DNA of 64,000 nucleotides from a virus, in IMG/VR virus record IMGVR_UViG_3300017766_002362, positions 7,785 to 71,784 of that record. One strand, 5' to 3'. Under the pieces are notes generated by a model. The model searched no databases. It was given only the letters and a program-made list of their open reading frames with translations, and was not told where the DNA came from. This document shows, piece after piece, positions 3,881-64,000 of this stretch; the first letter of the stretch is position 1, and each line of letters opens with the position of its first letter. The position numbers and the translations under genes are program-made.

Positions 3881-3881
3881 A

Positions 3882-4563: not shown

Positions 4564-4653
4564 TGGCGGAAGTGGTAGGATTCGAACCTACGGTTCCCGT
4601 GAAGAAACGACAGTTTTCAAGACTGTTGCGATCAACCGCTCTGCCACACTTCC
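4564..4653 (-). tRNA. tRNA-Ser(TGA)
   Basis: Cloverleaf with long variable arm, CCA end. Confidence 0.9.
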
Positions 4654-4973: not shown

Positions 4974-4977
4974 AAAT

Positions 4978-5053
4978 TGGTGCACGGAGTAGGACTCGAA
5001 CCTACATAATTCACCGTGTAAAGGTGACGCTTAACCTCTCAGACCATCCGTGC
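4978..5053 (-). tRNA. tRNA-Val(TAC)
   Basis: Cloverleaf, TTTACAC loop, CCA. Confidence 0.88.
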
Positions 5054-5068
5054 ATAAACTCCTATATC

Positions 5069-5242
5069 TTACAGAGTAGGACCCCATTTATCTATGGGGC
5101 ATTTAGCAGGTTTCCATTGAGTTTTTAGATGGATGACGCAACCGCACTTTGAGCAAACACCAAGTTTATTGTGATCGCATGACTGGCAGATAGCCAATCT
5201 TTCTTGTTTAACTTTATCAGATGCTATCTTATCATCAAACAT
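5069..5242 (-). CDS. 57-aa Cys-rich protein (not in ORF track)
   Basis: Manual translation MFDDKIASDKVKQERLAICQSCDHNKLGVCSKCGCVIHLKTQWKPAKCPIDKWGPTL. Confidence 0.75.
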   Translation of the reverse strand: MFDDKIASDKVKQERLAICQSCDHNKLGVCSKCGCVIHLKTQWKPAKCPIDKWGPTL

Positions 5243-7410: not shown

Positions 7411-8402
7411 TTTAAATCCTCCTCGCACATCTCATTTACCAATGAGTGAATATCGTATTTCGGCTGCCAATTCAACAGCGTTTTCGCTTTGGTCGGATCA
7501 CCAAGTAGATTTACTACATCAACTGGTCTGTAGAAATCCTTATTGACCTTAACCCAGATTTTTCCATTCGGATCTCTAGCAACTTCGTCTATGCCAGATC
7601 CTTCCCATGTTAGGTTGACACCAAAATATTTTGCTGCTAGATTACAAAACTCTCGAATAGAGTATTGTTGACCTGTTGCTATAACAAAGTCATCTGGTTC
7701 GTTATGCTGTAGAATTAGCCACATTGCCTCAACATAATCTTTAGCATGACCCCAATCTCTGAGGCTGTCTAGATTGCCTAATTCTACATGACTTTGTAAG
7801 CCACGATGAATATTTGCAAATGCCTTTGTAATCTTTTTAGTCACAAACATCTCGCCTCTTCTGGGACTTTCGTGATTGTATAAAATTCCAGTAGAGGCAA
7901 ACATGTTATAACTGTGTCTGTAATTCTGAACGATCCAGTGAGCATAAAGTTTTGCAACACCATACGGACTTCCTGGATGAAATGGTGTTGATTCATTTTG
8001 AGGAACATTAATGTTAGTTCCATACATCTCACTAGTGCTTGCTTGATAGAATTTACAATTTAATTTAATAGAACGAATAGCCTCTAGAATTCTCAGTGGT
8101 CCCAACCCATCGATTTCGGCAGTGGCTATTGGCATTTCAAAACTGAGTTTTACATGACTTTGAGCAGCCAAGTTGTAAACTTCATCAGGTTGAATGTTTA
8201 AAAGACAGTTCGCCAATGCAGCACTGTCAGTTAGATCTCCGTTATGAAGAACTAACTTGTCTTTGACGTTGGCTATATTAGGATGATTAACAGAAGAAAT
8301 CCTTCTAACCAATCCATGGACTTCGTATCCTTTTTCTAAAAGGAATTCCGCAAGATAACTACCATCTTGTCCAGTCACACCAGTAATAAATGCTTTTTTC
8401 AT
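7395..8402 (-). CDS. gmd: GDP-mannose 4,6-dehydratase
   Basis: ITGVTGQDGSYLAEFLL, YNLAAQSHV, FYQASTSEMYG, NHESPRRG, RDWGHAKDYV. Confidence 0.97.
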   Translation of the reverse strand: MKKAFITGVTGQDGSYLAEFLLEKGYEVHGLVRRISSVNHPNIANVKDKLVLHNGDLTDSAALANCLLNIQPDEVYNLAAQSHVKLSFEMPIATAEIDGLGPLRILEAIRSIKLNCKFYQASTSEMYGTNINVPQNESTPFHPGSPYGVAKLYAHWIVQNYRHSYNMFASTGILYNHESPRRGEMFVTKKITKAFANIHRGLQSHVELGNLDSLRDWGHAKDYVEAMWLILQHNEPDDFVIATGQQYSIREFCNLAAKYFGVNLTWEGSGIDEVARDPNGKIWVKVNKDFYRPVDVVNLLGDPTKAKTLLNWQPKYDIHSLVNEMCEEDLKCVGV

Positions 8403-8426
8403 AACAACCTCTTTCTATATATAATC

Positions 8427-8503
8427 TGGCGCGATCGGAGGGACTCGAACCCCCAACCTAGAGATTAGAAATCTCTTGCACTATCCGATTGTGCTACGAC
8501 CGC
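8427..8503 (-). tRNA. tRNA-Arg(TCT)
   Basis: Cloverleaf, CCA. Confidence 0.9.
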
Positions 8504-8509
8504 AGATAG

Positions 8510-8583
8510 TGGAGCGGGATATCAGAATCGAACTGATGACGAAAGTTTGGAAAACTTTAGTTTTACCATTAAACTAATCCCGC
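8510..8583 (-). tRNA. tRNA-Gly(TCC)
   Basis: Cloverleaf, CCA. Confidence 0.9.
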
Positions 8584-8587
8584 ATTC

Positions 8588-8672
8588 TGGTGCGAATGGT
8601 CGGACTCGAACCGACAAGGCTATCGCCGACAGATTTTAAGTCTGTTGAGTTTACCGATTTCTCCACACTCGC
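8588..8672 (-). tRNA. tRNA-Leu(TAA)
   Basis: Cloverleaf, long variable arm, CCA. Confidence 0.9.
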
Positions 8673-8677
8673 AAAAA

Positions 8678-8754
8678 TGGTCGGACAGAGAGGATTCGAA
8701 CCTCCGACCCTCTGCTCCCAAAGCAGATGCACTACCAGGCTGTGCTACTGTCCG
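8678..8754 (-). tRNA. tRNA-Pro(TGG)
   Basis: Cloverleaf, CCA. Confidence 0.9.
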
Positions 8755-8792
8755 ATGTTTATATCTTACTATATCTATTCCCAAAAGTCAAC

Positions 8793-8869
8793 TGGTGCGC
8801 CCACTAGGACTTGAACCTAGAATCAACAAATTATGAGTTTGCTGCATTAACCAATTATGCTATAGGCGC
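8793..8869 (-). tRNA. tRNA with CAT anticodon (Ile2/lysidine type or Met)
   Basis: CTCATAA loop, CCA; identity ambiguous. Confidence 0.8.
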
Positions 8870-8874
8870 AAATT

Positions 8875-8965
8875 TGGTGCTCCTGCTTGGACTTGAACCA
8901 AGACTAACCTCTAATCTGGAGTTCGGGATTATAAGTCCCGTCGTGCTACCTTACACTACAGGAGC
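8875..8965 (-). tRNA. tRNA with TAT anticodon (Ile) and long variable arm
   Basis: GCTCCTG/CAGGAGC acceptor, CGGGA-CTTATAA-TCCCG anticodon arm, 21-nt variable region, CCA. Confidence 0.85.
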
Positions 8966-8969
8966 AAAA

Positions 8970-9056
8970 TGGCGGAAGGCAGTGTATTCGAAACACATTC
9001 CCGAAGGGAATCATCTGTTTAGCAAACAGCGACAGATCCTCTCTGCTATACCTTCC
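8970..9056 (-). tRNA. tRNA-Ser(GCT)
   Basis: Cloverleaf, long variable arm, CCA. Confidence 0.85.
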
Positions 9057-9060
9057 AAAC

Positions 9061-9137
9061 TGGTGGGACAAGATGGATTCGAACCATCGACCTCAGTCTT
9101 ATCAGGACTGTGCGCTAACCAACTGTGCCATTGTCCC
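9061..9137 (-). tRNA. tRNA-Ile(GAT)
   Basis: Cloverleaf, CCA. Confidence 0.9.
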
Positions 9138-9141
9138 GAAA

Positions 9142-9216
9142 TGGAGTTGCGAACTGGAGTCGAACCAGCATAAGACAGTTTTGCAGACTGTCGCCTGACC
9201 TTTCAGCCACCGCAAC
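9142..9216 (-). tRNA. tRNA-Cys(GCA)
   Basis: Cloverleaf, CCA. Confidence 0.88.
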
Positions 9217-9220
9217 AAAT

Positions 9221-9297
9221 TGGCACCCTCTGAGAGACTTGAACTCCCGACCTCAACGTCCGTAGCGTTGCGTTCTAATCCACTGAACTAAGAGGGC
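9221..9297 (-). tRNA. tRNA-Arg(ACG)
   Basis: Cloverleaf, CCA. Confidence 0.88.
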
Positions 9298-9379
9298 AAA
9301 TAAAGCCTGGTCGTCGTAGAAGGACTTTTCTCGCATCCAGGAATGCGCTACCGATTAACGATGGTAGAACCGCTGCAGG

Positions 9380-9454
9380 TGGTGCCAAGTGTTGGTATCG
9401 AGCCAACCTATCGAGTTCTTCAGACTCGCACTAATCCATCTCAGTTAACTTGGC
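9380..9454 (-). tRNA. tRNA-Phe(GAA)
   Basis: Cloverleaf, CCA. Confidence 0.88.
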
Positions 9455-9461
9455 AAAAAAA

Positions 9462-9537
9462 TGGTAGCAGTGGTGTGATTCGAACACACGATCTTCACCG
9501 TATGAAGGTGCCGCATTAGCCGCTATGCTACACTGCC
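9462..9537 (-). tRNA. tRNA-Met(CAT), elongator-like
   Basis: TTCATAC loop, CCA. Confidence 0.85.
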
Positions 9538-9541
9538 AAAA

Positions 9542-9627
9542 TGGTGGGTAGTGATGGATTCGAACCACCGTAGCCGATAGGCAACAGATTTACAGTCTGT
9601 CTGTTTTAACCACTCACACAACTACCC
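9542..9627 (-). tRNA. tRNA-Tyr(GTA)
   Basis: Cloverleaf, long variable arm, CCA. Confidence 0.9.
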
Positions 9628-9631
9628 GAAC

Positions 9632-9705
9632 TGGCTGAGGCGCATGGATTCGAACCACGGTAAGCAGGATCAAAACCTGCTGTCCTACCACTAGACGACG
9701 CCTCA
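9632..9705 (-). tRNA. tRNA-Gln(TTG)
   Basis: Cloverleaf, CCA. Confidence 0.9.
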
Positions 9706-9710
9706 AGAAT

Positions 9711-9963
9711 TAGTTGCTTCCCCCTGCTGGTGGTCACTTTTCATCCACTTCACAACACAGGGAGATTCTCGTATTGCCAACGACCGTTCGGTTGGACGGC
9801 AGATTTCTCTGGGCTTCATTGACTCATCTGCGTTGCCACAGTGAGGTGTTGCCAAACCACCCATGCTTGTCACAGCATTTCTTTATCGTCTGGGTCAGAC
9901 TAGCCACTAACAATGGCGCGACATGATAGCCGAAGCGTACATTGCTGCAGAGGCTTCGGGCAT
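9711..9963 (-). ncRNA. Candidate structured ncRNA (~250 nt) inside tRNA array
   Basis: Many stems and GCAA tetraloops on the minus strand; no credible ORF. Confidence 0.55.
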
Positions 9964-9967
9964 ATTT

Positions 9968-10042
9968 TGGTGGAGGATGAGAGAATCGAACTCTCAACTC
10001 TGCGATGCAAACGCAGCGTGTTCCCATTAGCACTAATCCCCC
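9968..10042 (-). tRNA. tRNA-Ala(TGC)
   Basis: Cloverleaf, CCA. Confidence 0.9.
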
Positions 10043-10047
10043 AAATA

Positions 10048-10122
10048 TGGCTGGCGTGGTAGGGATCGAACCTACGACAGAGTGATTAACAGTCACTTGA
10101 TCTACCGCTGATCTACACGCCA
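10048..10122 (-). tRNA. tRNA-Asn(GTT)
   Basis: Cloverleaf, CCA. Confidence 0.9.
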
Positions 10123-10132
10123 AAAAATAAAC

Positions 10133-10206
10133 TGGTATCCCGATACGGACTCGAACCGCAACCAAGAGTTTTGGAGACTCGTATGCTACCATTACACCAT
10201 CGAGAT
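10133..10206 (-). tRNA. tRNA-Trp(CCA)
   Basis: Cloverleaf, CCA end. Confidence 0.88.
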
Positions 10207-10210
10207 AAGT

Positions 10211-10286
10211 TGGTGGGTCTAGCAGGATTCGAACCTGCATCAAACTGGTTAAGAGCCAGATATAATCACCGTTATACGATAGACCC
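10211..10286 (-). tRNA. tRNA-Lys(CTT)
   Basis: Cloverleaf, CCA. Confidence 0.88.
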
Positions 10287-10293
10287 AAACGTA

Positions 10294-10367
10294 TGGTAGG
10301 GCTGGAGGGTAACGCTCCCTCTTTTACGGATTAAAAGTCCGTTACATCACTTTAATGTTTCAACCCC
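10294..10367 (-). tRNA. tRNA-Lys(TTT), non-canonical T-loop
   Basis: CTTTTAA loop; T-loop AGCGTTA. Confidence 0.8.
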
Positions 10368-10390
10368 AAAAAAATCATAACAAAGTAATC

Positions 10391-10465
10391 TGGTGAACCC
10401 AAGGGAATTCGAATCCCTATTCCATCCGTGAAAGGGATGTGTCCTAACCGTTAGACGATGGGTCC
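10391..10465 (-). tRNA. tRNA-Glu(TTC)
   Basis: Cloverleaf, CCA. Confidence 0.9.
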
Positions 10466-10471
10466 GCAAAA

Positions 10472-10597
10472 ACCATATTGAAGCACACTCAATACATTCT
10501 ACTATGCTGGTACATAATATTTTCGCAGTCTACCAGGACCACCGAACAGAGCACCGTTTCCGCACGGTGATGTCCGTTGAATATGCTTCAATATGGT
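10472..10597 (-). ncRNA. Candidate small RNA closed by a 21-bp stem
   Basis: ACCATATTGAAGCATATTCAA pairs with TTGAGTGTGCTTCAATATGGT (two G-U pairs); internal hairpins. Confidence 0.55.
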
Positions 10598-10668
10598 GCC
10601 TTCAGAGAGATTTGAACTCCCAACCTACTGATTACAAATCAGTTGCACTACCGTTGTGCTATGAAGGC
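10594..10668 (-). tRNA. tRNA-Thr(TGT)
   Basis: Cloverleaf, CCA. Confidence 0.9.
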
Positions 10669-48750: not shown

Positions 48751-51700
48751 TTATAAGCCAAGTAAAAATGGATGGAATACTTCAGTGACTGCAGCTCCTT
48801 GAACACCCTGAACACCCTGCGCACCTATTGTGCCTTGAACACCTGCGCCTGTTGTTCCAACTTCTGCCCACTGATTGCTGTCTCCATCGCTAATATATTT
48901 AAGCAAGACACCAAGATCGGTGTTGAACCATTCATCGCCAGAAGCTGGTGATACTGGAGCAGTGTTTCCAGAAGTAAATGTACCGCCACCACCGCCACCG
49001 CCTGTAATTGTAACAGTGACATCATTGTTTGAGTTGCTCGCAGTGACTCCAGCACCAACAAAGTTAATACTTGCAACATTTGTTGTTATATTAGAGCCTT
49101 CATCTTTGATTGTAATTGCAGCTGCGCCACCACCGCCACCACCAGAGGCACCTTGAATTCCTTGGATACCTTGTACACCTGTGCCAGTCGCACCTTGAGT
49201 GCCTGCTCCAGTGGTTCCTTGTGCTCCAATTGTTCCTTGAGTGCCTGTTGTTCCTTGTGGACCAAGATCAGATATATTAATTGGTCCACCCATTGCTGAG
49301 TGATTTTGGCAGACATAATATAATGTGCTAGGTGCATTATATGGAACTGCAAATGTTATTGCTCCAACCTGCGCGCCGCCATTCGTAACACCAGTGCTGT
49401 AAGTATTTCCAGCATTGTAAGCACCAGAACTTGTCTGGAACCAGAAAGGATGCCCAGAAGCATTTACATCAAAAATATAAGTAAATCCACGCAACAGATT
49501 TAGTGTTGGATTATTTGATCCATCAATTGTGTAAGCACTAGAACCACTGTTTGTAACAGTGTATGTTCTTGCGCCGAGAGCACCTTGTGTGCCTTGCGTT
49601 CCAATCGCTCCCTGTGATCCTATTGTTCCCTGCGAGCCTACTGCACCTTGAGTTCCTAATGTTCCTTGAGAACCATTAGTTCCTTGAGTTCCTGTTAGAC
49701 CTTGTGAACCTACAGCACCTTGAGTTCCTAATGTTCCTTGTGAACCTAATGCGCCTTGCGATCCTATAACACCTTGAGAACCTACAGCACCCTGAGTTCC
49801 TAGAGTTCCTTGAGTCCCTAATGTTCCTTGTGAACCAATAACACCTTGTGTTCCTAATGTTCCTTGAGAACCTACAGCACCCTGAGTTCCTAGAGTTCCT
49901 TGTGATCCTTCAATTCCTTGAGAACCTATTAGACCTTGTGATCCAACAGTTCCTTGAGTTCCTAATGTTCCTTGTGTTCCACTGGCTCCTTGTGTTCCAG
50001 TTGTTCCTTGCGCACCAGTGTCTCCCTTATCACCAGTGCGAACAAATGTAATAATAACGTTTGTTGAGTTTGGTAGTGCGGTTATGCCTGCTGTGTGAGC
50101 AATCGGAACGGAGAAATAATTAGGAAGTTCGACATGCAAACCTGTGATATTAAAGAACGCAAATTCAAGAACATTTGCAGTGTTTGCAACTTTAAATGTT
50201 CCCTTAATTGAAGAAGTTGAATCATCAATTGTTTGCAAATAATTAAACACATTTGCTGTAGATTGATCAATGAAATCAATAAACAATGCATTTGCTGAAG
50301 AGAATGTTGTATTATTAAATTTAAGATTTCCGTTGCCTGGATCTGTGTTTGCAGTGTCAGTTAGATACGCATAATCAAAAGTTGCACCACCGAAGTCACC
50401 AGTGTCGCCCTTTACGCCTGTTGTACCTTGTGTTCCAATTAAACCTTGGGATCCAATTGTTCCCTGTGATCCAACTGTTCCTTGAGATCCATCAGTTCCT
50501 TGAGTTCCTGTTAGACCTTGTGAACCCACAGTGCCTTGTGAACCATTAGTGCCTTGCGATCCTACTGTTCCTTGCGTTCCTTCAGTTCCTTGAGATCCTG
50601 TAGTTCCTTGAGTGCCGTTTGTTCCTTGTGAACCAGTTGCGCCTTGAGATCCTGTTAGACCTTGCGTTCCTTCAGTTCCTTGAGATCCTGTAGTTCCTTG
50701 AGTGCCGTTTGTTCCTTGTGAACCTACAGTACCCTGAGAACCTTCAGTACCTTGTGAACCTGTAGTTCCTTGAGATCCTACTGTTCCTTGAGTTCCGTTT
50801 GTTCCTTGTGAACCCACAGTGCCCTGCGAGCCTACTGTTCCTTGTGATCCTGTTGTTCCCTGAGATCCTGCAGTACCCTGAGAACCTTCAGTTCCTTGCG
50901 AACCAGTGACACCTTGAGATCCAGTTAATCCTTGCGAACCTGTTAGACCTTGTGATCCAATTAAACCCTGCGATCCGTCAGTTCCTTGCGAGCCTGTTGT
51001 TCCCTGTGAGCCAGTGACGCCTTGAGATCCAGTTAATCCTTGCGAACCTGTTGTTCCTTGAGTTCCGTTTGTTCCTTGTGTACCTGTTGCTCCTTGCGAT
51101 CCTACTGTTCCTTGGATTCCAGTATCACCATTTCTTGATATATTAAATCCTGTTAGATCACCATCGTCTATTGCATCAGAAGATATTGAAAGTGTTGTAA
51201 CTCCAATCTCATAATATCCAGTTTTCTTTGTAATATTATCAACTTGAAGATACCATCTTTCAGTTGCCGCAGAACCACGAAGGCTCAAGAAACCCTTTGG
51301 TGTTGCTGATGAGTTGAATACTTGACTTATGAATGGATAAACATTAGCACCAGCAACATCATTATCATCTAACCAAATTTTTGTAATTGCTGATTGTGTG
51401 TTAGGATTATCGCAGTGGAATGATTGAGAATCTGGTGCAGTGTCTGTTGTTTTTGCAGTATCAAAGGTGTAGAAGAAGAATCCGCCGACAGCACCAACAG
51501 AACCTGTAGTACCTTGTGTACCATCAGTTCCTTGTAAACCTAATGTTCCTTGTGCGCCTGTTAATCCTTGAGATCCAGTTAAACCCTGCGAGCCTACTGT
51601 TCCTTGTGATCCTGTTGTTCCCTGTGAACCAGAGACGCCTTGAGATCCTACTGTTCCTTGAGTTCCCTCAGCTCCTTGAGATCCTGTAGCACCTTGAGTT

Positions 51701-54700
51701 CCATTAGTGCCTTGCGATCCTACTGTTCCTTGTGCGCCATTTGTTCCTTGCGCACCAGTTGTACCTTGTGATCCAGATCCTGTAGTACCTTGTGTACCAT
51801 CAGTTCCTTGTACGCCACTAGATCCTTGCGAACCAGTCGCACCTTGAACTCCAGTATCACCCTTGTCACCAGTTCGAACAAACGTAATGACAACATTTGT
51901 AGAGTCAGGTAATGTTGTTACGCCAACAGTATGAGCAACAGGAATAAAGAAGTAATTTGCAACATGACCATGCAAGCCATTAATATCAAAAAATGCAAAC
52001 TCAAGAACGTTTGCTGTATTCGCAACTTTAAATGTTCCCTTAATCGTTGATGTTGAATCATCAATCGTTTGGAGATAATTGAAAACGTTTGCAGCACTTT
52101 TATCTAGGAAATCAATGTATAATGTTGTTGCTGATGATAGTGTGGTGTTATCAAATTTTAAATTTGCTGTTCCAGGATCTGTGTTTGCTGTATTCGTTAA
52201 GTAGATGTAATCGAACGACGCACCACCAAAACTACCAGTGTCGCCCTTTAGACCTGTTGTTCCCTGTATTCCAGTTAGACCTTGGGATCCAATTGTTCCC
52301 TGTGATCCAACTGTTCCTTGAGATCCATCAGTTCCTTGTACACCAAGTGTTCCTTGTGAACCAATAACTCCCTGAGAACCATTAAGACCCTGAGATCCAA
52401 TTGTTCCCTGCGCTCCTAATGTTCCTTGAGATCCTGTTGTTCCTTGAGATCCAATTAAACCTTGCGCACCTTCTGTACCTTGCGAACCAGTAACTCCCTG
52501 AGAACCAGTTAATCCTTGAGAACCTGTTAAACCTTGAGATCCAATTGTTCCTTGTAAACCATCTGTTCCCTGCGTACCTGTTGATCCTTGAGAACCAGTT
52601 GTTCCTTGTGATCCTGTTGTTCCTGTTGAACCATTTGAACCAGTAAGACCTTGAGATCCAATCGTTCCCTGCGAACCGTCAGTTCCTTGAGTTCCTAATG
52701 TTCCTTGAGAACCTGTTAAACCTTGAGATCCAGTGGTTCCTTGTGATCCTATAATACCTTGAGAGCCTATTGTTCCTTGAGCACCTAACGAACCTTGAGT
52801 TCCATTAGTACCTTGCGATCCTTCAGCACCTTGAGATCCAGTGACACCCTGAGATCCTGTAGTTCCTTGTGAACCAAGAGTTCCTTGAGTTCCCAGTGCG
52901 CCTTGTATACCAGGATTTCCTAGTGTTCCTTGAGTACCAATAACACCTTGAACGCCTTGAGAACCAATTGCTCCTTGCGTCCCTGTCCCAGTTAAACCTT
53001 GTATACCAATTAATCCTTGCGTTCCTTCAGTTCCTTGAGATCCAGTAGTTCCTTGGGTTCCGTTTGTTCCTTGTGTACCTGTTAATCCTTGAGAACCAAT
53101 TGTTCCTTGAGCACCACTTCCTGTAGCACCTTGCGTACCGTCAGTTCCTTGTGTACCTGTTAATCCTTGAGAACCAATTGTTCCTTGAGCGCCACTTCCT
53201 GTTGTTCCTTGTGTTCCAAATGTTCCTTGAACACCCTGAACACCTTGCGATCCCAATGTTCCTTGAGGTCCAACAGCACCTTGAGCGCCTATAGCACCTG
53301 TTGCACCAGCAAGATTAACTTCCCAATTGTTGAAACTTCCAGAACCACTAGTGGTCGTCACATTAAGACTTAATTCACCAGTTGATTCATTATAATCTGT
53401 AACAACACCTTCCATGTAAATACTGGAAGTGTTAGCAACTCTTACTTCTTGAGAAATCGAGTATGCTAGATCTGCTGCGATAGTGAGTAATTTGATACCT
53501 TCAGAAATCGACAACGTTGTTGTACTTACAGTTTGATACGTATCTCCAGCTAAACCAATTAATCCTTGAGCACCAAGAGTTCCTTGAGATCCTAAAGTTC
53601 CTTGCGATCCTCGAGTTCCTTGAATGCCTTGAGTACCTTGTACTCCGAGGGAACCTTGCGTTCCTTGCGAACCTTGTGTTCCAGTTAAACCTTGGGATCC
53701 TTCTGTTCCTTGAGATCCTATTGTTCCCTGCGCACCTGTTGATCCTTGTACACCAAATGCGCCTTGAGATCCAGTAACACCCTGAGATCCTGTAGTTCCT
53801 TGTGAACCTCCAGTTCCTCCAGTTCCTTGCGATCCTGTGTTTCCTTGAGTTCCTGTTAATCCTTGTGAACCTGTAGTTCCCTGTGATCCAGTTGTTCCTT
53901 GATTACCAATCGCGCCTTGGGAACCTGTTGTTCCTTGCGTCCCATCAACGCCTTGAGAACCAATAGTTCCTTGAGCACCAAGAGTTCCTTGAGTGCCATT
54001 TGCGCCTTGCGTTCCACTAGCACCTTGAGAACCAATAGTTCCTTGAGCACCAAGAGTTCCCTGCGCTCCTAATGTTCCTTGAGATCCTGTTGTTCCTTGT
54101 GGACCACCTGATGGACCTTGTAAACCTGTAGATCCTTGTGGACCTGTTGTTCCTTGTGTTCCAACTTTAATGAGAAGTGAAGTAGCAGCCCATGTATCAA
54201 GAGTGCTAGTCGTAAATAATGCTTGATTATATCTTAGATAAACACCACTATATGTTTTTGCTCCTGCTGGAACAGAAATTTCTTTGAGCGTCCAAGTATT
54301 TCCAGTTTGATCAGCAACAGCAGATGTGTGCATTGTTGTCCATGTATTACCATCTGCGGAATACTGAACTAGGAAATCTTCATTTACATCAGGTGATTCA
54401 CCCCAATTACCATCCAATCCAGCATTAACATAATAGTACGCATAATCAACGAACACCAAGAAAACTTTATTCTTAGTAGTAACTGTTCTGTTTGATATTC
54501 CATCAAATTTTATAATTGATGCGGAACTTGGAACAACTGCTGTGGTACTTAAACCTGAGACTGAATTTACTGTGGTTACAGTTGCGCCAGAGCCAACATT
54601 TAATGTTGTTTCTGCGCTGAGGTCAAGTAACGCATAACCTGTTGTACCAGTAAATCCTTGTGTACCTTGTACACCTTGTGCTCCACTTCCTGTTGATCCT

Positions 54701-55671
54701 TGCACACCGAAAGGACCTTGTGTACCTGTTGCGCCTTGTGTACCTGTTGGACCTTGGAAAGTGCCCATGTCGACATACAATCCTTCTCCTGTATATGCAT
54801 ACAAATGTGGAGTAGGAATGCCGTCTAGTACAACATATGAATCACCAATATTTGGTGTTGGTGAAAGTGGTAGATTGGTGTTTGTAGAAACTGATCCTTT
54901 TAGAATCAATGTACCTGCTGAAACACCACCGATCGTTGATCCTGCTGGCAAACTAATTGCTGTGCCATCAGAGGACATTGAAACGCCACCGAGATTGATT
55001 GTTGTACCAGAAAGATACAAGTCTCTCCATCGGTGCGTAGGACTACCCAAGTCGTAAACTTCATTCAATGATGGGACGAGATTACCAGCAACATTTGATG
55101 TTACTCTCAATACACTCGCATTAAGAGTTGCAACGTTTGCTGATGTTGCATTTATTGTTGCGACATTCGTAATAGCAAAATTATTTGCGTCTAGATTTGC
55201 TGTGAGTGAACCACCAGTTAATATTCCACCACCAATCGCACCCTGAATACCAGCTAAACCTTGAGAGCCTGTTGCTCCTTGTACACTGGCGCCAGTTGTT
55301 CCTTGTGCGCCTAATGCTCCTTGAGCACCTAGTATTTGACCTGCGTTAATATATCCGCTTTGTGTTGATGAATAGATATAAAGATTGCTGTCTTCAATAA
55401 CAATATATCCATCACCATCATTCGCAGAAGGTGGTAGATCTGAAATTAGGCTGACTGTTCCTGCAACTTGTAATCCGCTGCCAGTATTACCCCTGACACC
55501 TTGTATTCCTTGTATTCCAGTGCCAGTCGTTCCTTGACTACCCTGCACACCTTGCGAGCCATCTTCTCCAATATGACCTTGTGCGCCTGTAGCACCTTGC
55601 GCACCACTTGGACCAGTGGCACCAACTGTTAACGAAACAAGTCTATTTTGGCTATTATTTGTAATCTTCAT
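48751..55671 (-). CDS. 2306-aa collagen-like fibre protein
   Basis: Hundreds of Gly-X-Y triplets (GSQGTT/GTQGAT) interrupted by globular modules; ends EVFHPFLLGL. Confidence 0.92.
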   Translation of the reverse strand: MKITNNSQNRLVSLTVGATGPSGAQGATGAQGHIGEDGSQGVQGSQGTTGTGIQGIQGVRGNTGSGLQVAGTVSLISDLPPSANDGDGYIVIEDSNLYIYSSTQSGYINAGQILGAQGALGAQGTTGASVQGATGSQGLAGIQGAIGGGILTGGSLTANLDANNFAITNVATINATSANVATLNASVLRVTSNVAGNLVPSLNEVYDLGSPTHRWRDLYLSGTTINLGGVSMSSDGTAISLPAGSTIGGVSAGTLILKGSVSTNTNLPLSPTPNIGDSYVVLDGIPTPHLYAYTGEGLYVDMGTFQGPTGTQGATGTQGPFGVQGSTGSGAQGVQGTQGFTGTTGYALLDLSAETTLNVGSGATVTTVNSVSGLSTTAVVPSSASIIKFDGISNRTVTTKNKVFLVFVDYAYYYVNAGLDGNWGESPDVNEDFLVQYSADGNTWTTMHTSAVADQTGNTWTLKEISVPAGAKTYSGVYLRYNQALFTTSTLDTWAATSLLIKVGTQGTTGPQGSTGLQGPSGGPQGTTGSQGTLGAQGTLGAQGTIGSQGASGTQGANGTQGTLGAQGTIGSQGVDGTQGTTGSQGAIGNQGTTGSQGTTGSQGLTGTQGNTGSQGTGGTGGSQGTTGSQGVTGSQGAFGVQGSTGAQGTIGSQGTEGSQGLTGTQGSQGTQGSLGVQGTQGIQGTRGSQGTLGSQGTLGAQGLIGLAGDTYQTVSTTTLSISEGIKLLTIAADLAYSISQEVRVANTSSIYMEGVVTDYNESTGELSLNVTTTSGSGSFNNWEVNLAGATGAIGAQGAVGPQGTLGSQGVQGVQGTFGTQGTTGSGAQGTIGSQGLTGTQGTDGTQGATGSGAQGTIGSQGLTGTQGTNGTQGTTGSQGTEGTQGLIGIQGLTGTGTQGAIGSQGVQGVIGTQGTLGNPGIQGALGTQGTLGSQGTTGSQGVTGSQGAEGSQGTNGTQGSLGAQGTIGSQGIIGSQGTTGSQGLTGSQGTLGTQGTDGSQGTIGSQGLTGSNGSTGTTGSQGTTGSQGSTGTQGTDGLQGTIGSQGLTGSQGLTGSQGVTGSQGTEGAQGLIGSQGTTGSQGTLGAQGTIGSQGLNGSQGVIGSQGTLGVQGTDGSQGTVGSQGTIGSQGLTGIQGTTGLKGDTGSFGGASFDYIYLTNTANTDPGTANLKFDNTTLSSATTLYIDFLDKSAANVFNYLQTIDDSTSTIKGTFKVANTANVLEFAFFDINGLHGHVANYFFIPVAHTVGVTTLPDSTNVVITFVRTGDKGDTGVQGATGSQGSSGVQGTDGTQGTTGSGSQGTTGAQGTNGAQGTVGSQGTNGTQGATGSQGAEGTQGTVGSQGVSGSQGTTGSQGTVGSQGLTGSQGLTGAQGTLGLQGTDGTQGTTGSVGAVGGFFFYTFDTAKTTDTAPDSQSFHCDNPNTQSAITKIWLDDNDVAGANVYPFISQVFNSSATPKGFLSLRGSAATERWYLQVDNITKKTGYYEIGVTTLSISSDAIDDGDLTGFNISRNGDTGIQGTVGSQGATGTQGTNGTQGTTGSQGLTGSQGVTGSQGTTGSQGTDGSQGLIGSQGLTGSQGLTGSQGVTGSQGTEGSQGTAGSQGTTGSQGTVGSQGTVGSQGTNGTQGTVGSQGTTGSQGTEGSQGTVGSQGTNGTQGTTGSQGTEGTQGLTGSQGATGSQGTNGTQGTTGSQGTEGTQGTVGSQGTNGSQGTVGSQGLTGTQGTDGSQGTVGSQGTIGSQGLIGTQGTTGVKGDTGDFGGATFDYAYLTDTANTDPGNGNLKFNNTTFSSANALFIDFIDQSTANVFNYLQTIDDSTSSIKGTFKVANTANVLEFAFFNITGLHVELPNYFSVPIAHTAGITALPNSTNVIITFVRTGDKGDTGAQGTTGTQGASGTQGTLGTQGTVGSQGLIGSQGIEGSQGTLGTQGAVGSQGTLGTQGVIGSQGTLGTQGTLGTQGAVGSQGVIGSQGALGSQGTLGTQGAVGSQGLTGTQGTNGSQGTLGTQGAVGSQGTIGSQGAIGTQGTQGALGARTYTVTNSGSSAYTIDGSNNPTLNLLRGFTYIFDVNASGHPFWFQTSSGAYNAGNTYSTGVTNGGAQVGAITFAVPYNAPSTLYYVCQNHSAMGGPINISDLGPQGTTGTQGTIGAQGTTGAGTQGATGTGVQGIQGIQGASGGGGGGAAAITIKDEGSNITTNVASINFVGAGVTASNSNNDVTVTITGGGGGGGTFTSGNTAPVSPASGDEWFNTDLGVLLKYISDGDSNQWAEVGTTGAGVQGTIGAQGVQGVQGAAVTEVFHPFLLGL

Positions 55672-58295: not shown

Positions 58296-59453
58296 TCACA
58301 CCACGAAGCCAGGTTTATACACTGTCTTTCCGCTCACGCTCACTGCTGTTAAAATTTGTTTACGATTCTTTCCCTCTGAATAAGAAGCATGGACCCATCC
58401 AGAATTTGGACCTTCTTTTGGGTCATAGAATTCTAGTATGATTTGATCAAACTCGCAATTATCTGCTACCCATTTTGCGAGGGTTGGATTTGCGAGTCCG
58501 TCGATTTCAAAGTCCACTGCTTCGCCGTTACAATGCTGAGACTTACTAGACCCACCCACAGCAGAGTTAAGGGCAGCACCACGATACCCAGAATTAATGC
58601 GGACAGGCTTGCCAAAATGTTTACGCACAGGTTCAAGAATCTTTTCACAGACTTTTTGTAGGTTTGATGCATGGGCTGGTCCTGGTGTATTATCAATTCG
58701 CTTTCTAATTGCGGTTTCTGATTTTGTAAATTCATTCAACTTAAAGTGTTCAGACAATTGCATGTCTGGTGTCACAGAACTAATTGCAGGAGCAGGTTTT
58801 GCGACTACGTTTGCGACTGGTGCTGCTGCTGGTGCAGCGCTTGTTGCCCAGCCAATGTATTTCTTCGTCTTATCCGAGCGATCCGCCAAGCCGTGAGTAC
58901 CACCATTAATTTTCTTAGTAAGGGATAATATCGCAGCATCTGTCACTCCTTGATCGCAGATTGCCCATAGTTTATTTCGTTCGAAGAAAAACATTGCAGA
59001 CTCAAATGCTAACTCTGTGGCAACAAGGTCTGGATTGCTCATTACATCTGGACGCTTACAATAATCAGCAAATGCTTTATAATTGTCGCGACCAGTCAAT
59101 TGAAGCGCACCACGTCCGCGATATCTCCAACCATCACCAGAAGACTCTGGTCCATTACCCATACGTGATGCATAAACACGATTGGCAATCGCTTCTGGTT
59201 TTCTTTCATATTTTGCTGCTGTTGCTGCATCTGGAAAATACTTCTTAAAGATTCCCATCAAACCTTTTGCATTATAGTTTAAATTCTCAGAGAATGCTTT
59301 AAACCCACCTGTTTCGTGGGCTGTCTGAGCAAAGAAGTGAGCAGCGCGCACGGGGGACAGTTTATAAAATGCCATTGCGGCTTTAAACGTTCCTGGACCC
59401 CATGCGCCGTCTGCTGGAATTCCAATTTTTGTCTGTAGACTTTTAAGACTCAT
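58296..59453 (-). CDS. Endolysin: PG-binding-like N-terminus, GH19 domain and peptidase M15 domain
   Basis: LQ.KIG..ADG.WGPGT; HFFAQTAHETGGF, YRGRGALQLTGR.NY, INGG; INSGYR, SQHCNGEAVD, WVH.SY. Confidence 0.9.
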   Translation of the reverse strand: MSLKSLQTKIGIPADGAWGPGTFKAAMAFYKLSPVRAAHFFAQTAHETGGFKAFSENLNYNAKGLMGIFKKYFPDAATAAKYERKPEAIANRVYASRMGNGPESSGDGWRYRGRGALQLTGRDNYKAFADYCKRPDVMSNPDLVATELAFESAMFFFERNKLWAICDQGVTDAAILSLTKKINGGTHGLADRSDKTKKYIGWATSAAPAAAPVANVVAKPAPAISSVTPDMQLSEHFKLNEFTKSETAIRKRIDNTPGPAHASNLQKVCEKILEPVRKHFGKPVRINSGYRGAALNSAVGGSSKSQHCNGEAVDFEIDGLANPTLAKWVADNCEFDQIILEFYDPKEGPNSGWVHASYSEGKNRKQILTAVSVSGKTVYKPGFVV

Positions 59454-59499
59454 GACTCACCTCAAGCAATGTGATCGTCAACCTCATCAACAACGTCCT

Positions 59500-59808
59500 T
59501 TACAGGCTCTGGAAGTAGATCTTCTGCCTTGGTTCTTCTGGTGTTGGTGCTTTAGGCTCTTCTGTTTTCTTGTCATCCTTACCAAGCATAATGCCTGATA
59601 GAATACCAGTTAAGAAGGTTGCGATTGGTGTGATAAGTTCGAAGAACTTTGCATCATTAGGTGACTGCTGCATTGGCTGCGTCACGAAGATGAGTGAGTA
59701 TAGAACTACGAACACAATTCCTGTAAGTGTGAAAGCAAGAGAAAGACCGACTGTAAACTTTAATCGCGCCATCAATTCACTTTCTGTATAGCGTGGACCT
59801 TTAAACAT
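59500..59808 (-). CDS. 2-TM membrane protein (holin-like); C-terminus probably frameshifted
   Basis: Two TM segments directly upstream of endolysin; alternative frame continues to 59462. Confidence 0.65.
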   Translation of the reverse strand: MFKGPRYTESELMARLKFTVGLSLAFTLTGIVFVVLYSLIFVTQPMQQSPNDAKFFELITPIATFLTGILSGIMLGKDDKKTEEPKAPTPEEPRQKIYFQSL

Positions 59809-59810
59809 AA

Positions 59811-60050
59811 TTATTCTCCTGTATTATTAATTTCTGCTTCTGGAGCAGGGGTTTCTTCAACTTGTGACTCAACTGTTTGTTTCGGCGGCAATCCATTTAA
59901 ACTATCATAACACATTCCATCACCTTCACAGGCTGGACGATTACATTCTTCTTTGTCCTTATTTGCAGGATCTTGACATGGATATCTATATGTATCTTCA
60001 CACGCAATTAGCGTTAATGACAAAGCAAGTAAAAACATTGCCTTTTTCAT
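59811..60050 (-). CDS. Small lipoprotein (RYPCQDP.N...C..P.C...G.C)
   Basis: LIAC lipobox. Confidence 0.75.
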   Translation of the reverse strand: MKKAMFLLALSLTLIACEDTYRYPCQDPANKDKEECNRPACEGDGMCYDSLNGLPPKQTVESQVEETPAPEAEINNTGE

Positions 60051-60051: not shown

Positions 60052-60399
60052 TCATTTCTTCCCGTATTTTAAATACACCATTGCGCCTGTCATCTCATCC
60101 TCAATAATAATTGGCGCGTCTCTATTTTCTTTTGCATATTGGCGGATGGCTTCGCCGATTTCATCTCGACCAACATAACTCGAATAATGCTCAAACTTCT
60201 TTTTACCAAGTTTGGCTTTATTAAATGCATCTGAAGAAACAACAAAGACCTCTTTTCCAGCAAACTTTTTACGGCGAAGCATACTACCCTTTGTTGTTAT
60301 ACCCTTTGGAACTGGTGGAATGTCTGGTTCAAGACCAGCAACCTGTCCACTTCCAACAGTGTTTACAATTTCTTCTTTAATTTGTTTAATTTTTTTCAT
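60052..60399 (-). CDS. Hypothetical T4-like protein, possible internal head protein
   Basis: MKKIKQIKEE N-terminus. Confidence 0.65.
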   Translation of the reverse strand: MKKIKQIKEEIVNTVGSGQVAGLEPDIPPVPKGITTKGSMLRRKKFAGKEVFVVSSDAFNKAKLGKKKFEHYSSYVGRDEIGEAIRQYAKENRDAPIIIEDEMTGAMVYLKYGKK

Positions 60400-60845: not shown

Positions 60846-61304
60846 TTAATATTCGCTAGTGTCGCCTGAGTCATCGTTTCTTTTTGCATACCATGTTGAT
60901 GGGCGGAATTCTATTTCTTCGCGATCTCCTAAAATATCTTCAGAATCCATGCTCAATAAATCTTGTAATTCATCGTCTGAAACTATTTGGGCATAACCAT
61001 CTACAAATCCATCTTCATTTGTATCATACACAATGTATAGATTATATGGAGATGTTCCAAGTATGTATACTAACTCTGCCCCCAAATCCAAAAAATTATT
61101 TGTTGCAGATTGAGGCAGCGGGAATCCATACCTTTCAGTAAATCCACGCAATTGAGTTAAAAACAATGGAGCGTTTTGATATGGCTTTTCAGTCAACTTA
61201 TCTAACTCTGCATTGATATCGTCCATATTTTGTGCAATATTGCGACTATCAACTTCAATAACATCGTTATATTGTTCTGTTAAAAATTGATTAAAGGTTT
61301 GCAT
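60846..61304 (-). CDS. Candidate internal head protein with capsid-targeting-like N-terminus
   Basis: MQTFNQFLTE resembles T4 IP capsid-targeting sequence MKTYQEFIAE. Confidence 0.6.
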   Translation of the reverse strand: MQTFNQFLTEQYNDVIEVDSRNIAQNMDDINAELDKLTEKPYQNAPLFLTQLRGFTERYGFPLPQSATNNFLDLGAELVYILGTSPYNLYIVYDTNEDGFVDGYAQIVSDDELQDLLSMDSEDILGDREEIEFRPSTWYAKRNDDSGDTSEY

Positions 61305-61887
61305 TTTTCTCACCTTCTATTTCTGGTTTCATATTTACTTTATTTTTCTTTCCTTTAACAATGTCTAAAGTTTTTTGAGCGACGGAGGCACTTTTTTCCT
61401 GCTCACGTTCTTTTTTAGCAGCAAGAGTTCCTGCTTGTTTCTTTCCCTTATTCTGGGCTTTTGTTTGTGCATCGAATTTTGCTTGAGCAGCCTTCACATA
61501 TGGTTTCATTTCTTCTGATTTAACAGAGACACCAGCCTTTGGATTTCCGTATGCTTTTTGTCTTTGTTTAGCAAGATCTTGTTTTGCTTTTAACTTTTTG
61601 GCTAATGGTGGATCAGCACGAAGCATCCAACCTGGACTGAGAGATTTTTTTACTTCATCAACTTGTTCGACTTCTTCGTTCATTTCGCCTTCCATATAGT
61701 TAGATGCTGTTAGAATATAATCTTCAGCAAGAGTAATTTTGCTCTGTACCCATTCTGGAAGATTAGACTCAGGTTTAAGCATGTCGTGCATTCTTTTAGC
61801 ATTAGCGATAATGCTCTTTAACTGCGACATTGCCATGTCACCTTCGTAATCGTATTCGCCTTTATCTTGTGGTGTAATGTCTGCCAT
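61291..61887 (-). CDS. Candidate internal head protein
   Basis: EYDYEGDMA..QL...LPEWVQSKITLA.DY; EEVEQVDE motif. Confidence 0.7.
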   Translation of the reverse strand: MADITPQDKGEYDYEGDMAMSQLKSIIANAKRMHDMLKPESNLPEWVQSKITLAEDYILTASNYMEGEMNEEVEQVDEVKKSLSPGWMLRADPPLAKKLKAKQDLAKQRQKAYGNPKAGVSVKSEEMKPYVKAAQAKFDAQTKAQNKGKKQAGTLAAKKEREQEKSASVAQKTLDIVKGKKNKVNMKPEIEGEKNANL

Positions 61888-61888
61888 A

Positions 61889-64000
61889 TTATTCACCTTT
61901 GTTTAATGTTTTCTTTTTTGCTGATGCGATACGTGCTTTGATAACATCACCGTAAGTGATCTTCTTTGGATCGCCGTGCTTTTTGGCTAGTTCAACTTCC
62001 GTTGCAGTTTCTGGTGTTTTGCCTTCAACTGCTTCTGAGTATGCGCCTTTCTTAGTTACTGCTGCAGTCACTTTTGGTGTTGCGTCGACTTTAGGTTTCA
62101 TTCCGATATAATTTAGACGACCAACCTTCGATCTTACTCTACCGATATCTTTTCGAAGATTCTTTTGCGCTACGTCGCTAAATGCGCGTTTCCAATCTTT
62201 AGTCGCCTCATCCATTTTTTCTTCTTTATCTTCGTCTTCCATTTCTTCTTCGTCTTCAATCTCATCTTCTTCGACTTCCTTCTCCATTTTTTCCATTTTT
62301 TTGGATTCTAGGAATTCGTTTTGCTCATTTTTATTACCTTTTGCTGCATAGTATGCACCAAGAGCCTGTTGAATGCGCTCTTTCTTGCTTTTACCAGCAA
62401 ACTTTGGATTGTCTGAAGCAACGAAATCGCTGATCCATTTTGATGCTGGATCAGCAGCTGTTAATTTTTCTTCGATGTATTCAACTTCTTCTTTCTTGAG
62501 TTCTTTTGCGCGGCGCTCTGAGGCTGGCATTTCTTGATCCTGTTTTCTCTGTAATTCAGCAGCGCGTTTGTCTGATGCTGGGACTTGACCCGTTGCACCA
62601 ATGTCCTTCAAACGCTGTGCTAATGCTGGACGCTCAGCGGCAAGTTGAGCAACTGACTTTGTTGTATCAGTGTGTGCCTTTGCTCCCATTGAAGCCAATG
62701 ACATTGCGCCAACTGCGAGTGCCTTTGCAATTTTGCCTTCTTCGAGTTCGACTTCTTCACCCAACTGAACCAAAGTTCTATTGATACCTTCGATTTTCTT
62801 TTTAGTTTTTGCTGTATCCAAACCATGTTTCTTTTGATGAGCGTGAACTGCGTTAAGATACTTCAAATGCATTTTCATTGCATCTTTTCCGCCAGTTATT
62901 GAGCCTTTTTCCATACTTTGAACTCTTTGCCAATCAGCGGCTTGATCTTCATTTACTGATTCGACTTCTTCACCCATACGAACTTTAGCACCACCATAAA
63001 TTTTCTTGGTGGCTAACTTGATACCAGCAGCGCGTTTGCGGATCTTGTCATCTTCATATGAGGTGTTATCATTATGAGCCTTAAAATATGCACGATTATC
63101 TTTAGCGTCTTCAATATCATCTCGAGCCTTATCGCGATATGCACGAACCATCTTTTGCGACACTTCATCAACCTGCTCGACTTCTTCTTTCTTGAGTCCA
63201 GCCTTCATCGCTTTGCGGGCAAGACCACGAACGTAACGATATCCTGCTGGTTGTTTTCCTGGTGGCATCTTTGGTTTCTCCTTGACTGGTCCGCCGAGCA
63301 TTGATTCGGCTTCCTTCTTTGTAACTTCTTCAATCTGCTCGACTTCTTCAAAATGAGCCTTCATGTGCGCTTCAGTGTCTTTCTTAGTTTGATTTGGACC
63401 AAGACCACCAAGTTTTGTCATGCGGCGAATATACTTTTTAGAAGCAGCAGCAGCACGAGGATTCTTATCTCGATTCAAAAAGTTTTTGACATCAGATGAC
63501 TTTGGACGAGCGGCTGCTTCATAATCGAAGCGCATATTTGCTTCTTCGAGTTCGACTTCTTCAGAAACTTTTCTATTTCCCAATTCATCACGAGAAGCCT
63601 GATACTCAAATGGATTTTTATGTTTATTCATAGGTGTGTAGCGTAATTTACTAACTTTATTCTTAAGAGTAGATGTTGCTTGGGTTCGAGCAACTCTGGT
63701 TGTTGCTCGTTCTAACCCAGCATCTCTGTTAGGGTTCTTTTCATATGCCTTAGAATCTACATTTTTCTTGATATATGACTTTAGAGTTTTTTGATTTAGT
63801 TCATCAATCTGCTCGACTTCTTCTTTCTTTAACATTTCGCGACCAAACCGTGTTGGGCTGTGACCTCTTGCTGGATCAACTTTACCAGCCTTCATTGCTT
63901 TGAGACCAACTTGACGAACATATGCATTTTTCTTGTCTTTATTTTTTGCGTTCGCCATTAAATTGGCAATTTTACCTAACGTATTTTTATCTTTATCTGA
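61889..64000 (-). CDS. Polyprotein-like charged protein with repeated EEVExxxE motifs (5' end outside window)
   Basis: Frame stays open from 63958 to 64000 (SDKDKNTLGKIANLM); seven EEVE motifs. Confidence 0.8.
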   Translation of the reverse strand, partial: SDKDKNTLGKIANLMANAKNKDKKNAYVRQVGLKAMKAGKVDPARGHSPTRFGREMLKKEEVEQIDELNQKTLKSYIKKNVDSKAYEKNPNRDAGLERATTRVARTQATSTLKNKVSKLRYTPMNKHKNPFEYQASRDELGNRKVSEEVELEEANMRFDYEAAARPKSSDVKNFLNRDKNPRAAAASKKYIRRMTKLGGLGPNQTKKDTEAHMKAHFEEVEQIEEVTKKEAESMLGGPVKEKPKMPPGKQPAGYRYVRGLARKAMKAGLKKEEVEQVDEVSQKMVRAYRDKARDDIEDAKDNRAYFKAHNDNTSYEDDKIRKRAAGIKLATKKIYGGAKVRMGEEVESVNEDQAADWQRVQSMEKGSITGGKDAMKMHLKYLNAVHAHQKKHGLDTAKTKKKIEGINRTLVQLGEEVELEEGKIAKALAVGAMSLASMGAKAHTDTTKSVAQLAAERPALAQRLKDIGATGQVPASDKRAAELQRKQDQEMPASERRAKELKKEEVEYIEEKLTAADPASKWISDFVASDNPKFAGKSKKERIQQALGAYYAAKGNKNEQNEFLESKKMEKMEKEVEEDEIEDEEEMEDEDKEEKMDEATKDWKRAFSDVAQKNLRKDIGRVRSKVGRLNYIGMKPKVDATPKVTAAVTKKGAYSEAVEGKTPETATEVELAKKHGDPKKITYGDVIKARIASAKKKTLNKGE

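Follow-up and report, generated by a model that had tools for sequence, protein, structure and literature searches.

A mosaic gene family of uncultured aquatic T4-like phages with small modules exchanged at a short translated joint that resembles a head-protease site

The window analysed here, that is, the whole 64,000-nucleotide (nt) stretch, covers bases 7785-71784 of the 71,784-bp virus record IMGVR_UViG_3300017766_002362 of IMG/VR, which is 41% complete, and the end of the window is also the end of the contig. On the minus strand at this end lies gene A (61889..64000), which encodes a mosaic multi-module protein; its C-terminal 703 codons are present down to the stop codon at 61891-61889, and its 5′ end is missing at the contig end. 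It is adjoined by gene B (61291..61896, minus strand), whose start overlaps the gene A stop and whose 201-amino-acid (aa) product comprises an N-terminal EWVQSKIT module, one copy of the joint described below and a basic tail. Two near-identical, full-length relatives, P0001 and P0002, have about 158 extra N-terminal residues, opening MAIKVPALLHKMSK, and therefore the ATG at 63958 is not the start of gene A; in general, full-length gene A proteins have the N-terminus MA(I/D)KVPALLHKMS.... When the gene A protein was searched against Pfam and PHROG, no family was matched. Judged from sequence comparison with their relatives, genes A and B belong to a large mosaic “polyprotein” family of uncultured aquatic T4-like phages, whose members are built of a conserved head domain, a variable string of small, mostly basic modules and a conserved tail.

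Within the single polypeptide of the window copy, at least eight distinct modules (M0 to M7, all minus strand) are set apart by seven copies of a short acidic joint. The basic M0 (residues 1-59; 63824..64000), which continues the conserved N-terminal part of the relatives, is followed by joint 1 (EEVEQIDE, starting at residue 60; 63800..63823) and the M1 core (residues 68-146; 63563..63799). Joint 2, in the seven-residue form EEVELEE (from residue 147; 63542..63562), precedes the M2 core (residues 154-217; 63350..63541), joint 3 (EEVEQIEE, from residue 218; 63326..63349) the M3 core (residues 226-271; 63188..63325), and joint 4 (EEVEQVDE, from residue 272; 63164..63187) the M4 core (residues 280-343; 62972..63163). 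Then come joint 5 (EEVESVNE, from residue 344; 62948..62971) with the M5 core (residues 352-414; 62759..62947), joint 6 (EEVELEE, from residue 415; 62738..62758) with the M6 core (residues 422-503; 62492..62737), and joint 7 (EEVEYIEE, from residue 504; 62468..62491) with M7 (residues 512-703; 61892..62467), in which a DPASKWISDFV...KERIQQALGAYYA part, an acidic run and the conserved C-terminal tail ...HGDPKKITYGDVIKARI... were recognized. Joint 8 (EEVEQVDE; 61654..61677, minus strand) is the one in gene B.

The seven EEVE-type motifs of gene A had been listed in a preliminary description made from the DNA letters, and all of them were found, on the minus strand. They are beyond chance expectation: EEVE occurs seven times in the protein, compared with 0.05 times on average and at most twice in shuffled versions, and none of 20,000 shuffles reached seven. 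Across the window, with 94 open reading frames (ORFs) and 20187 aa, the strict joint pattern was found only in gene A and the adjacent gene B. The modules had been described as basic and of about 45-85 aa, which holds for the cores between joints (46-82 aa, isoelectric points of 9.9-10.5) but not for the last piece, since M7 has 192 aa, contains the acidic run and is not strongly basic. Their mutual dissimilarity was also confirmed, with M1 and M4 forming the only weakly alike pair (33% identity over 63 aa), and the other module-module matches being weak and 6-59 aa long, several of them consisting of the shared joint alone. A module opening with a hydrophobic helix had been claimed as well; the hydrophobic stretch GKIAKALAVGAMSLASMGAKA, an Ala/Gly-rich helix, does open the sixth module, M6. 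As a candidate membrane span it was rejected, with a Kyte-Doolittle value of 1.18 over 19 residues that is too low for confidence.

The joint was next characterized over 395 distinct contexts, which gave the consensus (K/N)EEVEQ[V/I]DE or the shorter EEVEL[E/D]E, followed by A or G in 186 contexts. In a second count, made without presupposing how the motif ends, 335 of 396 EE[VAIT]E seeds ran on as x-[V/I/L]-x-E or [V/I/L]-[E/D]-E, and when position 6 was aliphatic, Glu occupied position 8 in 289 of 295 cases, whereas Asp never stood there. A (V/I/L)-x-E pattern is present at all eight joints of the window. Among 113 further cluster representatives, two or more joints were found in 95, one in 11 and none in 7.

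The joints are alike in DNA too, as the preliminary description had it: seven of the eight begin GAAGAAGTCGA(A/G) and the remaining one begins GAAGAAGTTGAA. The joint Val codon is GTC in 7/8 window joints compared with 16% of the Val codons in long frames, an excess with a binomial chance of about 2e-5, although the joints are not mutually independent; similarly, the joint Gln codon is CAG in 3/4 cases against a background of 24%. In relatives, diverged joint DNA such as GAAGATATAGAACAAATTGATGAA (EDIEQIDE) and GAAGAAACAGAAATTGTTGCTGAA (EETEIVAE) keeps the terminal Glu and the aliphatic residue, and so do the joints EEIEIDE and EEVELDE, of which genes 20 and 21 of the cultured Methylophilales phage Melnitz carry one each. 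Because the codons are uniform, yet the Glu and the aliphatic residue persist where the DNA has diverged, the joint appears to be constrained as DNA and as protein alike.

Relatives of gene A were collected with a word-indexed protein search in which 8000 candidates were scored, and 759 relatives were obtained at E<=1e-3, typically with 70-99% identity over 10-45% of the query. Scanning 1.84 billion cluster representatives (50% identity) gave 1643 relatives at E<=1e-3, of which 412 reached 1e-10 and 69 reached 1e-30. When the eight pieces were mapped on the 120 best relatives, end-to-end matches in different orders were found, including M3-M5-M6-M2, M3-M2-M5-M6, M6-M2...M1, M6-M5...M2, M6-M2-M3 and M5...M6-M3; the most widespread module was M6 (87 matches, 88-100% identity), and M2, M3 and M0 had 79, 66 and 37 matches, respectively. 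After 240 relatives had been cut at their joints and the pieces clustered, 160 module families in 182 distinct architectures were obtained, with the M6 family showing 17 different followers and 14 different predecessors. Among 353 relatives, recurrent N-terminal head domains fell into type A (93), type B (107) and type C (7), with 141 being of other kinds or truncated, and conserved tails recurred at the C-termini. The EWVQSKIT module lies at the start of gene B in the window but within gene A in two relatives that carry the locus, the 101-kb record G001 and the 172,991-bp record G005, the latter being 100% complete; by this comparison, modules move between the adjacent genes A and B too.

The same exchange was observed in DNA. 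In the comparison of the window with the related sequences L005 and L009, all three module-length matches begin at base 0 of a joint and end within the next one, as exemplified by the M2 match to L005, which begins at the first base of joint 2, and the order M2, M5, M6 of the window is reversed to M6, M5, M2. At the protein level, with the whole gene A protein as query, the internal match boundaries lie within 2 residues of a joint for 91 of 302 starts and 60 of 256 ends, compared with 11.7% expected (p=7e-18 and p=1e-7, respectively); the majority of internal match ends are not at joints, and many of those come from weak matches. The stretch 61200-64000 was also compared with contigs from an RNA library and from three further DNA samples. 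Among the matches listed, 12 of 15 contig joints have one end no more than 3 nt away from a protein joint (one further contig joint is beyond those listed), and 12 of 24 loose contig ends fall within 4 nt of a joint against about 9% expected (82 further ends are beyond those listed), several of both kinds being at joint 3. In nine of the 15 listed contig joints, one side comprises fewer than 30 letters and agrees with the window over little beyond the joint, so that these contigs show a differing neighbour module rather than a clean deletion. In the clearest contig (side 57), M0 is joined through the joint straight to M3, as in P0001 and P0002. In one of the runs, X8, the stretch 63174-63549 (M2 and M3) has a summed contig depth of 600-1500 compared with about 5-50 over most other parts of the gene; therefore both modules are common to far more abundant phages there.

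The joint is the point at which related phages add, drop and reorder modules, in protein and in DNA. The modules themselves are under purifying selection relative to L005, with ratios of nonsynonymous to synonymous divergence (dN/dS) of 0.10 for M2, 0.15 for M5 and 0.05 for M6, at synonymous divergences (dS) of 0.57-1.1. Because its codons are unusually uniform, the joint probably also serves as a short homology for crossover. With module orders differing between relatives, DNA breaks at joint base 0, uniform codons and contigs that diverge at joints, the earlier picture of a shuffleable array whose linkers double as recombination joints is well supported; colinear orthologues lacking exchange, the opposite outcome, were not seen.

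By gene content the phage, an uncultured one from freshwater, is T4-like. The window carries 22 tRNA genes, genes for ribonucleotide reductase, thymidylate synthase, primase and an endolysin, baseplate-wedge-like genes and very long tail-fibre genes, and G001 adds a gp43-type DNA polymerase, UvsX, a replicative helicase, RegA and a clamp-loader subunit. The DNA polymerase of G005 is 91% identical to that of G001, and G005 has the T4 head block with a portal, small core proteins, a Peptidase_S77 protease, a T4-family scaffold and a capsid protein. The protease gene (108 bits) is 36% identical to T4 gp21 and the capsid protein 35% identical to gp23; the latter is less than 60% identical to any cultured phage, the nearest being cyanomyoviruses and Pelagibacter phage HTVC008M at about 55-56%. 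The head protease of the window phage is inferred from its relative G005.

Simple versions of the locus, as judged by position and module content, are carried by the cultured phages Melnitz and HTVC008M. Megablast of 61000-64000 and tblastn of the gene A protein and P0001 against a phage collection gave no match, and the positional counterparts in these two phages were located only through the neighbouring nucleotidyltransferase multi-module gene. Gene B and HTVC008M gp132 have the EWVQxKIT module in common (42% identity, E=6e-12), while the match to Melnitz_21 is weak (E=0.003). The published Melnitz paper contains no occurrence of “polyprotein”, “internal protein” or “mass spectrometry”, and no published description of such phage polyproteins turned up in a literature search.

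Next, the N-termini of neighbouring genes and of relatives were inspected for capsid-targeting-like leaders. In the T4 record, ipII and ipIII open with MKTYQEFIAE followed by A, and ipI with MKTFKEF...ITE followed by A; cutting presumably falls between these last two residues (MKTYQEFIAE/A and MKTFKEF...ITE/A, the slash here and below marking the cut position). The first 10 residues of IPIII are reported to be enough for loading; within the leader, targeting involves residues 4 and 7 and processing involves residues 8 and 10, the latter step being blocked by an Asp at position 10 (PMC9026906); T4 gp21 is described as cleaving after Glu. In G005, four N-termini fit a leader pattern, and three of these, MLKFSEFLKE, MLNFKTFIVE and MKSFKEFIKE, belong to proteins encoded directly downstream of the polyprotein genes. 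The last of these belongs to a 121-aa protein (L104:16919-17284), in which the leader gives way to 44 residues that copy the N-terminal arm of the capsid protein at 50% identity; the copied capsid segment starts right after the capsid protein's LWE/A motif. Because the end of the leader and LWE/A each precede the copied segment, both sites are likely mature N-termini, and the 121-aa protein may either mimic the capsid arm or belong to the capsid as a minor component. The LWE/A site itself is proposed from the motif and from the copy in the 121-aa protein, and in a BLAST comparison of the G005 capsid protein with T4 gp23, the T4 cut site was not aligned with it.

In the window, a 115-aa ORF (60052..60399, minus strand) is the orthologue of this 121-aa protein, being 53% identical overall and less capsid-like at its N-terminal end. 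Another neighbour, an acidic 155-aa ORF (60846..61313, minus strand), has a likely start at ATG 61304 that would give MQTFNQFLTE, a T4 capsid-targeting-like leader; its counterparts open with MLKFSEFLKE in G005, MKSFKDFQNVNE in HTVC008M (gp139) and MKNFKNHIAE in Melnitz (gene 27), and the window ORF and its counterparts always stand immediately before a DUF7207 gene. Such leaders also occur on relatives of gene A itself: P0205, P0206 and P0224 open with MLSFQEYLQE, MLRFKEYISE and MTQFKEYLGE, respectively, all of the form MxxF[KQ]EY[IL]xE, with M1- or M7-type modules behind the leader. The M1-type module of P0206 shows 50% identity to M1 from one joint to the next, and in P0224 the leader region aligns with joint 7, ahead of an M7-type module that is 69% identical. 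Two other genes with similar openings were noticed. Between the portal and protease genes of G005, a gene for a 293-aa protein (L103:8093-8974) has the leader-like start MKLKDLKQKLTE/A, ending LTE/A, as does the T4 gp23 site. Upstream of the polyprotein genes lies a gene (L104:7979-11101 in G005, L009:6279-9011 in G001) with a cytidylyltransferase-like domain and a string of small domains (DUF5661, DUF5824 and others), of which DUF5824 is also a module in the polyprotein relatives P0026, P0066, P0085 and P0089; it has homologues in Melnitz and HTVC008M, and the Melnitz copy opens MKKFSEIIE/A.

The reading best supported by the sequences and the gene context, to which we assign a probability of roughly 55%, is that the chain is cut by the head protease and its pieces are capsid cargo. 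The joint ends in the T4-type (aliphatic)-x-Glu, and a gp21-type protease of the phage would cut after this Glu inside the prohead, freeing about eight mini-proteins of 6-10 kDa and one 21-kDa piece, each of which would keep an acidic C-terminal tag. Because they are basic, the pieces would remain with the packaged DNA, like the T4 internal proteins, and would enter the host together with it. Conceivable later roles of the modules include balancing DNA charge, takeover, counter-defence and, for the hydrophobic module, action on membranes. The anti-defence or takeover role put forward in the preliminary description is a conjecture drawn by analogy with T4 IPI (PMC3012670). The resemblance of the linkers to protease sites held up in part: the near-invariant last Glu that is never Asp, the aliphatic residue two positions before it, the gp21-type protease of G005 and the nearby leaders all fit, and this fit is circumstantial.

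Several observations weigh against cutting and capsid delivery. Full-length gene A proteins have no T4-type leader, and the leader pattern was found in only 5/353 relatives; the T4 form, which spans about 10 residues with aromatics at positions 4 and 7 and I/L-x-E at positions 8-10, is not how full-length gene A relatives begin. The (V/I/L)-x-E pattern is short and occurs 1.7 times per 100 aa anywhere in these proteins. No protease gene was found in the window's record (41% complete) or in four related fragments, which, being fragments, do not imply its absence. The locus lies outside the head module: in relatives, sugar/nucleotidyltransferase or replication genes stand upstream and lysis and tail-fibre genes downstream. 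The frequency of the T4 late-promoter word TATAAATA in the window and in L104 is about that expected by chance, and the upstream regions of the G005 genes show no clear shared motif from which timing could be read. Selection against crossovers within modules could alone leave the surviving breakpoints at joints. Furthermore, no module matches a family of known function in Pfam, PHROGs, PDB sequences or the ESM Atlas, and the literature search turned up no virion proteome covering the gene A/B family.

A chain that stays uncut and acts as a whole, for instance by condensing or coating DNA, with the acidic joint as a flexible or helical, recombination-tolerant spacer between beads, is the strongest of the rivals and in our view unlikely. 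It would account for the alternation of basic modules with acidic joints, for a full-length gene A protein that has no targeting leader and for the place of the gene outside the head module. A spacer, however, would need neither so strict a Glu at its last position (289 of 295 cases, with no Asp) nor the aliphatic residue that stands two places ahead of this Glu, and modules that function in any order and neighbourhood, as M6 does with its 17 followers and 14 predecessors, fit independent units better. Moreover, in some relatives these modules follow a T4-like leader with the same site at its end.

Only a little less probable is that the protein is loaded into the prohead and cut, but as core-like or scaffold-like filler, its pieces being expelled or kept as packing material with no role after injection. 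The T4 core proteins gp22, gp67 and gp68 are reported to be loaded into the prohead and cut by gp21 at many sites, with the short fragments leaving the capsid (PMC5694885); many sites per chain, as in gp22, and the scaffold-like acidic run of the C-terminal piece would agree with this. In T4, however, these are genes of the head module, while gene A sits elsewhere, by lysis and tail-fibre genes. The T4 scaffold-family profile gave no match to the gene A protein, compared with 6e-65 for the true scaffold gene of G005. Neither the strong conservation (dN/dS 0.05-0.15; M6 88-100% identical in many contexts) nor the reassortment of modules would be needed in filler, and basic pieces would be expected to bind DNA rather than exit.

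We consider it improbable that the chain is a cytoplasmic polyprotein, cut at its joints by some other Glu-specific protease of phage or host and never packaged. The missing leader of gene A and the replication and auxiliary genes that adjoin one side of the locus would suit this, and near-identical contigs occur in the RNA library, which are uninformative on timing; against it, the annotated parts of the locus showed no further protease gene, the site agrees with the gp21 rule, and capsid-targeting-like leaders stand on neighbours and on some relatives. Least probable of all is a joint that acts at the DNA level only, as a 21-24-nt repeat that promotes recombination and is translated incidentally, for although the uniform codons (GTC 7/8, CAG 3/4) and the breakpoints at the first base of joints would follow from it, the residues relevant for cutting are kept where the DNA differs and the last Glu is near-invariant.

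Cutting by the head protease and delivery as capsid cargo can be combined with recombination in a fuller version, which we put forward tentatively and would not bet on. Here, one translated joint of 21-24 nt would do two jobs, as the head-protease site and as homology for crossover, and the modules would be independent effectors for counter-defence or takeover that one gene loads into the capsid together and that are then cut and injected, with M6 membrane-active and the commonest among them. If this dual role is true, it would be a phage form of exon shuffling, with a community-wide, freely recombining library of well over 100 mini-protein families. A gene able to load and release a whole re-sortable set of small proteins would explain how injected cargo diversifies fast in abundant aquatic T4-like phages, and would make at least 160 orphan module families available for functional screens. 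The joint would, in addition, offer a natural design rule for T4-type capsids that are to hold more than one protein. The cultured carriers Melnitz and HTVC008M make the idea directly testable.

The T4 internal proteins are the classic capsid-delivered counter-defence proteins and are encoded by single genes, each with its own leader. With IPI, IPII, IPIII and Alt the present family has in common a T4-like phage, and a gp21-type protease occurs in the complete relative G005. Both the internal proteins and the modules are small and basic, with a site that ends (I/L/V)-x-Glu and is often followed by Ala. T4 ipII and ipIII lie near the endolysin gene, and genes A and B do likewise. As in the family described here, the internal proteins are reported to be a diverse, fast-changing set united by one short conserved sequence (PMC3012670). 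Here, however, many units share one frame and the conserved element is an internal joint, not an N-terminal 10-residue leader; the joint EEVEQ[VI]DE differs from the T4 leader MKTYQEFIAE, which gene A lacks in any T4-type form. Because the leader form is absent and many units are fused in one frame, we keep the gene A family, on its sequence features, apart from the T4-type internal proteins.

Polyvalent proteins, as presented by Iyer et al. (2017, PMC5512222), combine unrelated domains that are suggested to accompany the DNA and to be set free by proteolysis, and are likened to the polyproteins of RNA viruses. They are described as having two to fifteen distinct domains in variable architectures, and gene A, with at least eight modules and 182 architectures among 240 relatives, falls within this range. 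Polyvalent proteins, however, have recognizable enzymatic or conflict domains and usually a metallopeptidase of their own, neither of which was found in the gene A family (no peptidase domain was found), and the gene A modules, unlike theirs, are orphans of 46-82 aa with one uniform joint that apparently fits the head protease. In phiKZ, 201phi2-1 and SPN3US, a gp21-related protease is reported to cut head, inner-body and ejection proteins after Glu at short motifs, often at multiple sites, and the processed proteins are ejected with the DNA (PMC5694885, PMC9026906). The extra sites there lie in discarded propeptides and have the motif (S/A/G)-x-E or A-x-E, and units are not known to be shuffled at these sites.

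At the DNA level, the closest likeness is with the PeSL cassettes, for which modular shuffling in the hyperplastic regions of T4-type phages is described by Comeau et al. (2014, PMC4122927). In both cases a short conserved repeat between unrelated segments is the exchange point in T4-like genomes; the PeSL, however, is an intergenic promoter/terminator that swaps whole genes, whereas the joint is 21-24 nt long, in frame and translated, and swaps modules inside a gene. The work of Arbiol et al. from 2010 reportedly also deals with modular shuffling in T4-type hyperplastic regions.

Pfam searches of 81 representative relatives found no family in 73 of them. The remaining eight had DUF5824, DUF6321, DUF7443 (with a weak MlaC match) or, in one case, a NinG fusion. 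This is P0216, a 187-aa protein composed of a type-B head domain, the start of M6 and a lambda NinG domain, which may be a chimeric assembly or a real fusion.

In the surroundings of the locus, one neighbouring virion protein has its best match in cyanophage S-RIM32, but synteny with that phage was uninformative. Directly upstream of the polyprotein gene, G005 has a ferritin/Dps-like gene (L104:11361-11867; Pfam Ferritin, 1.6e-21) that is absent from this place in G001. Downstream of genes A and B, 58296-60050 is a likely lysis cassette, comprising an endolysin with two domains, chitinase-like and peptidase (58296-59453), a membrane protein (59500-59808; phrog_25359) and a small lipoprotein-like ORF (59811-60050). 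Farther along the window, 48751-55671 encodes a tail-fibre-like protein of 2306 aa with many collagen-like repeat matches (38 PHROG families), and the 22 tRNA genes are clustered on the minus strand at 3525-10668.

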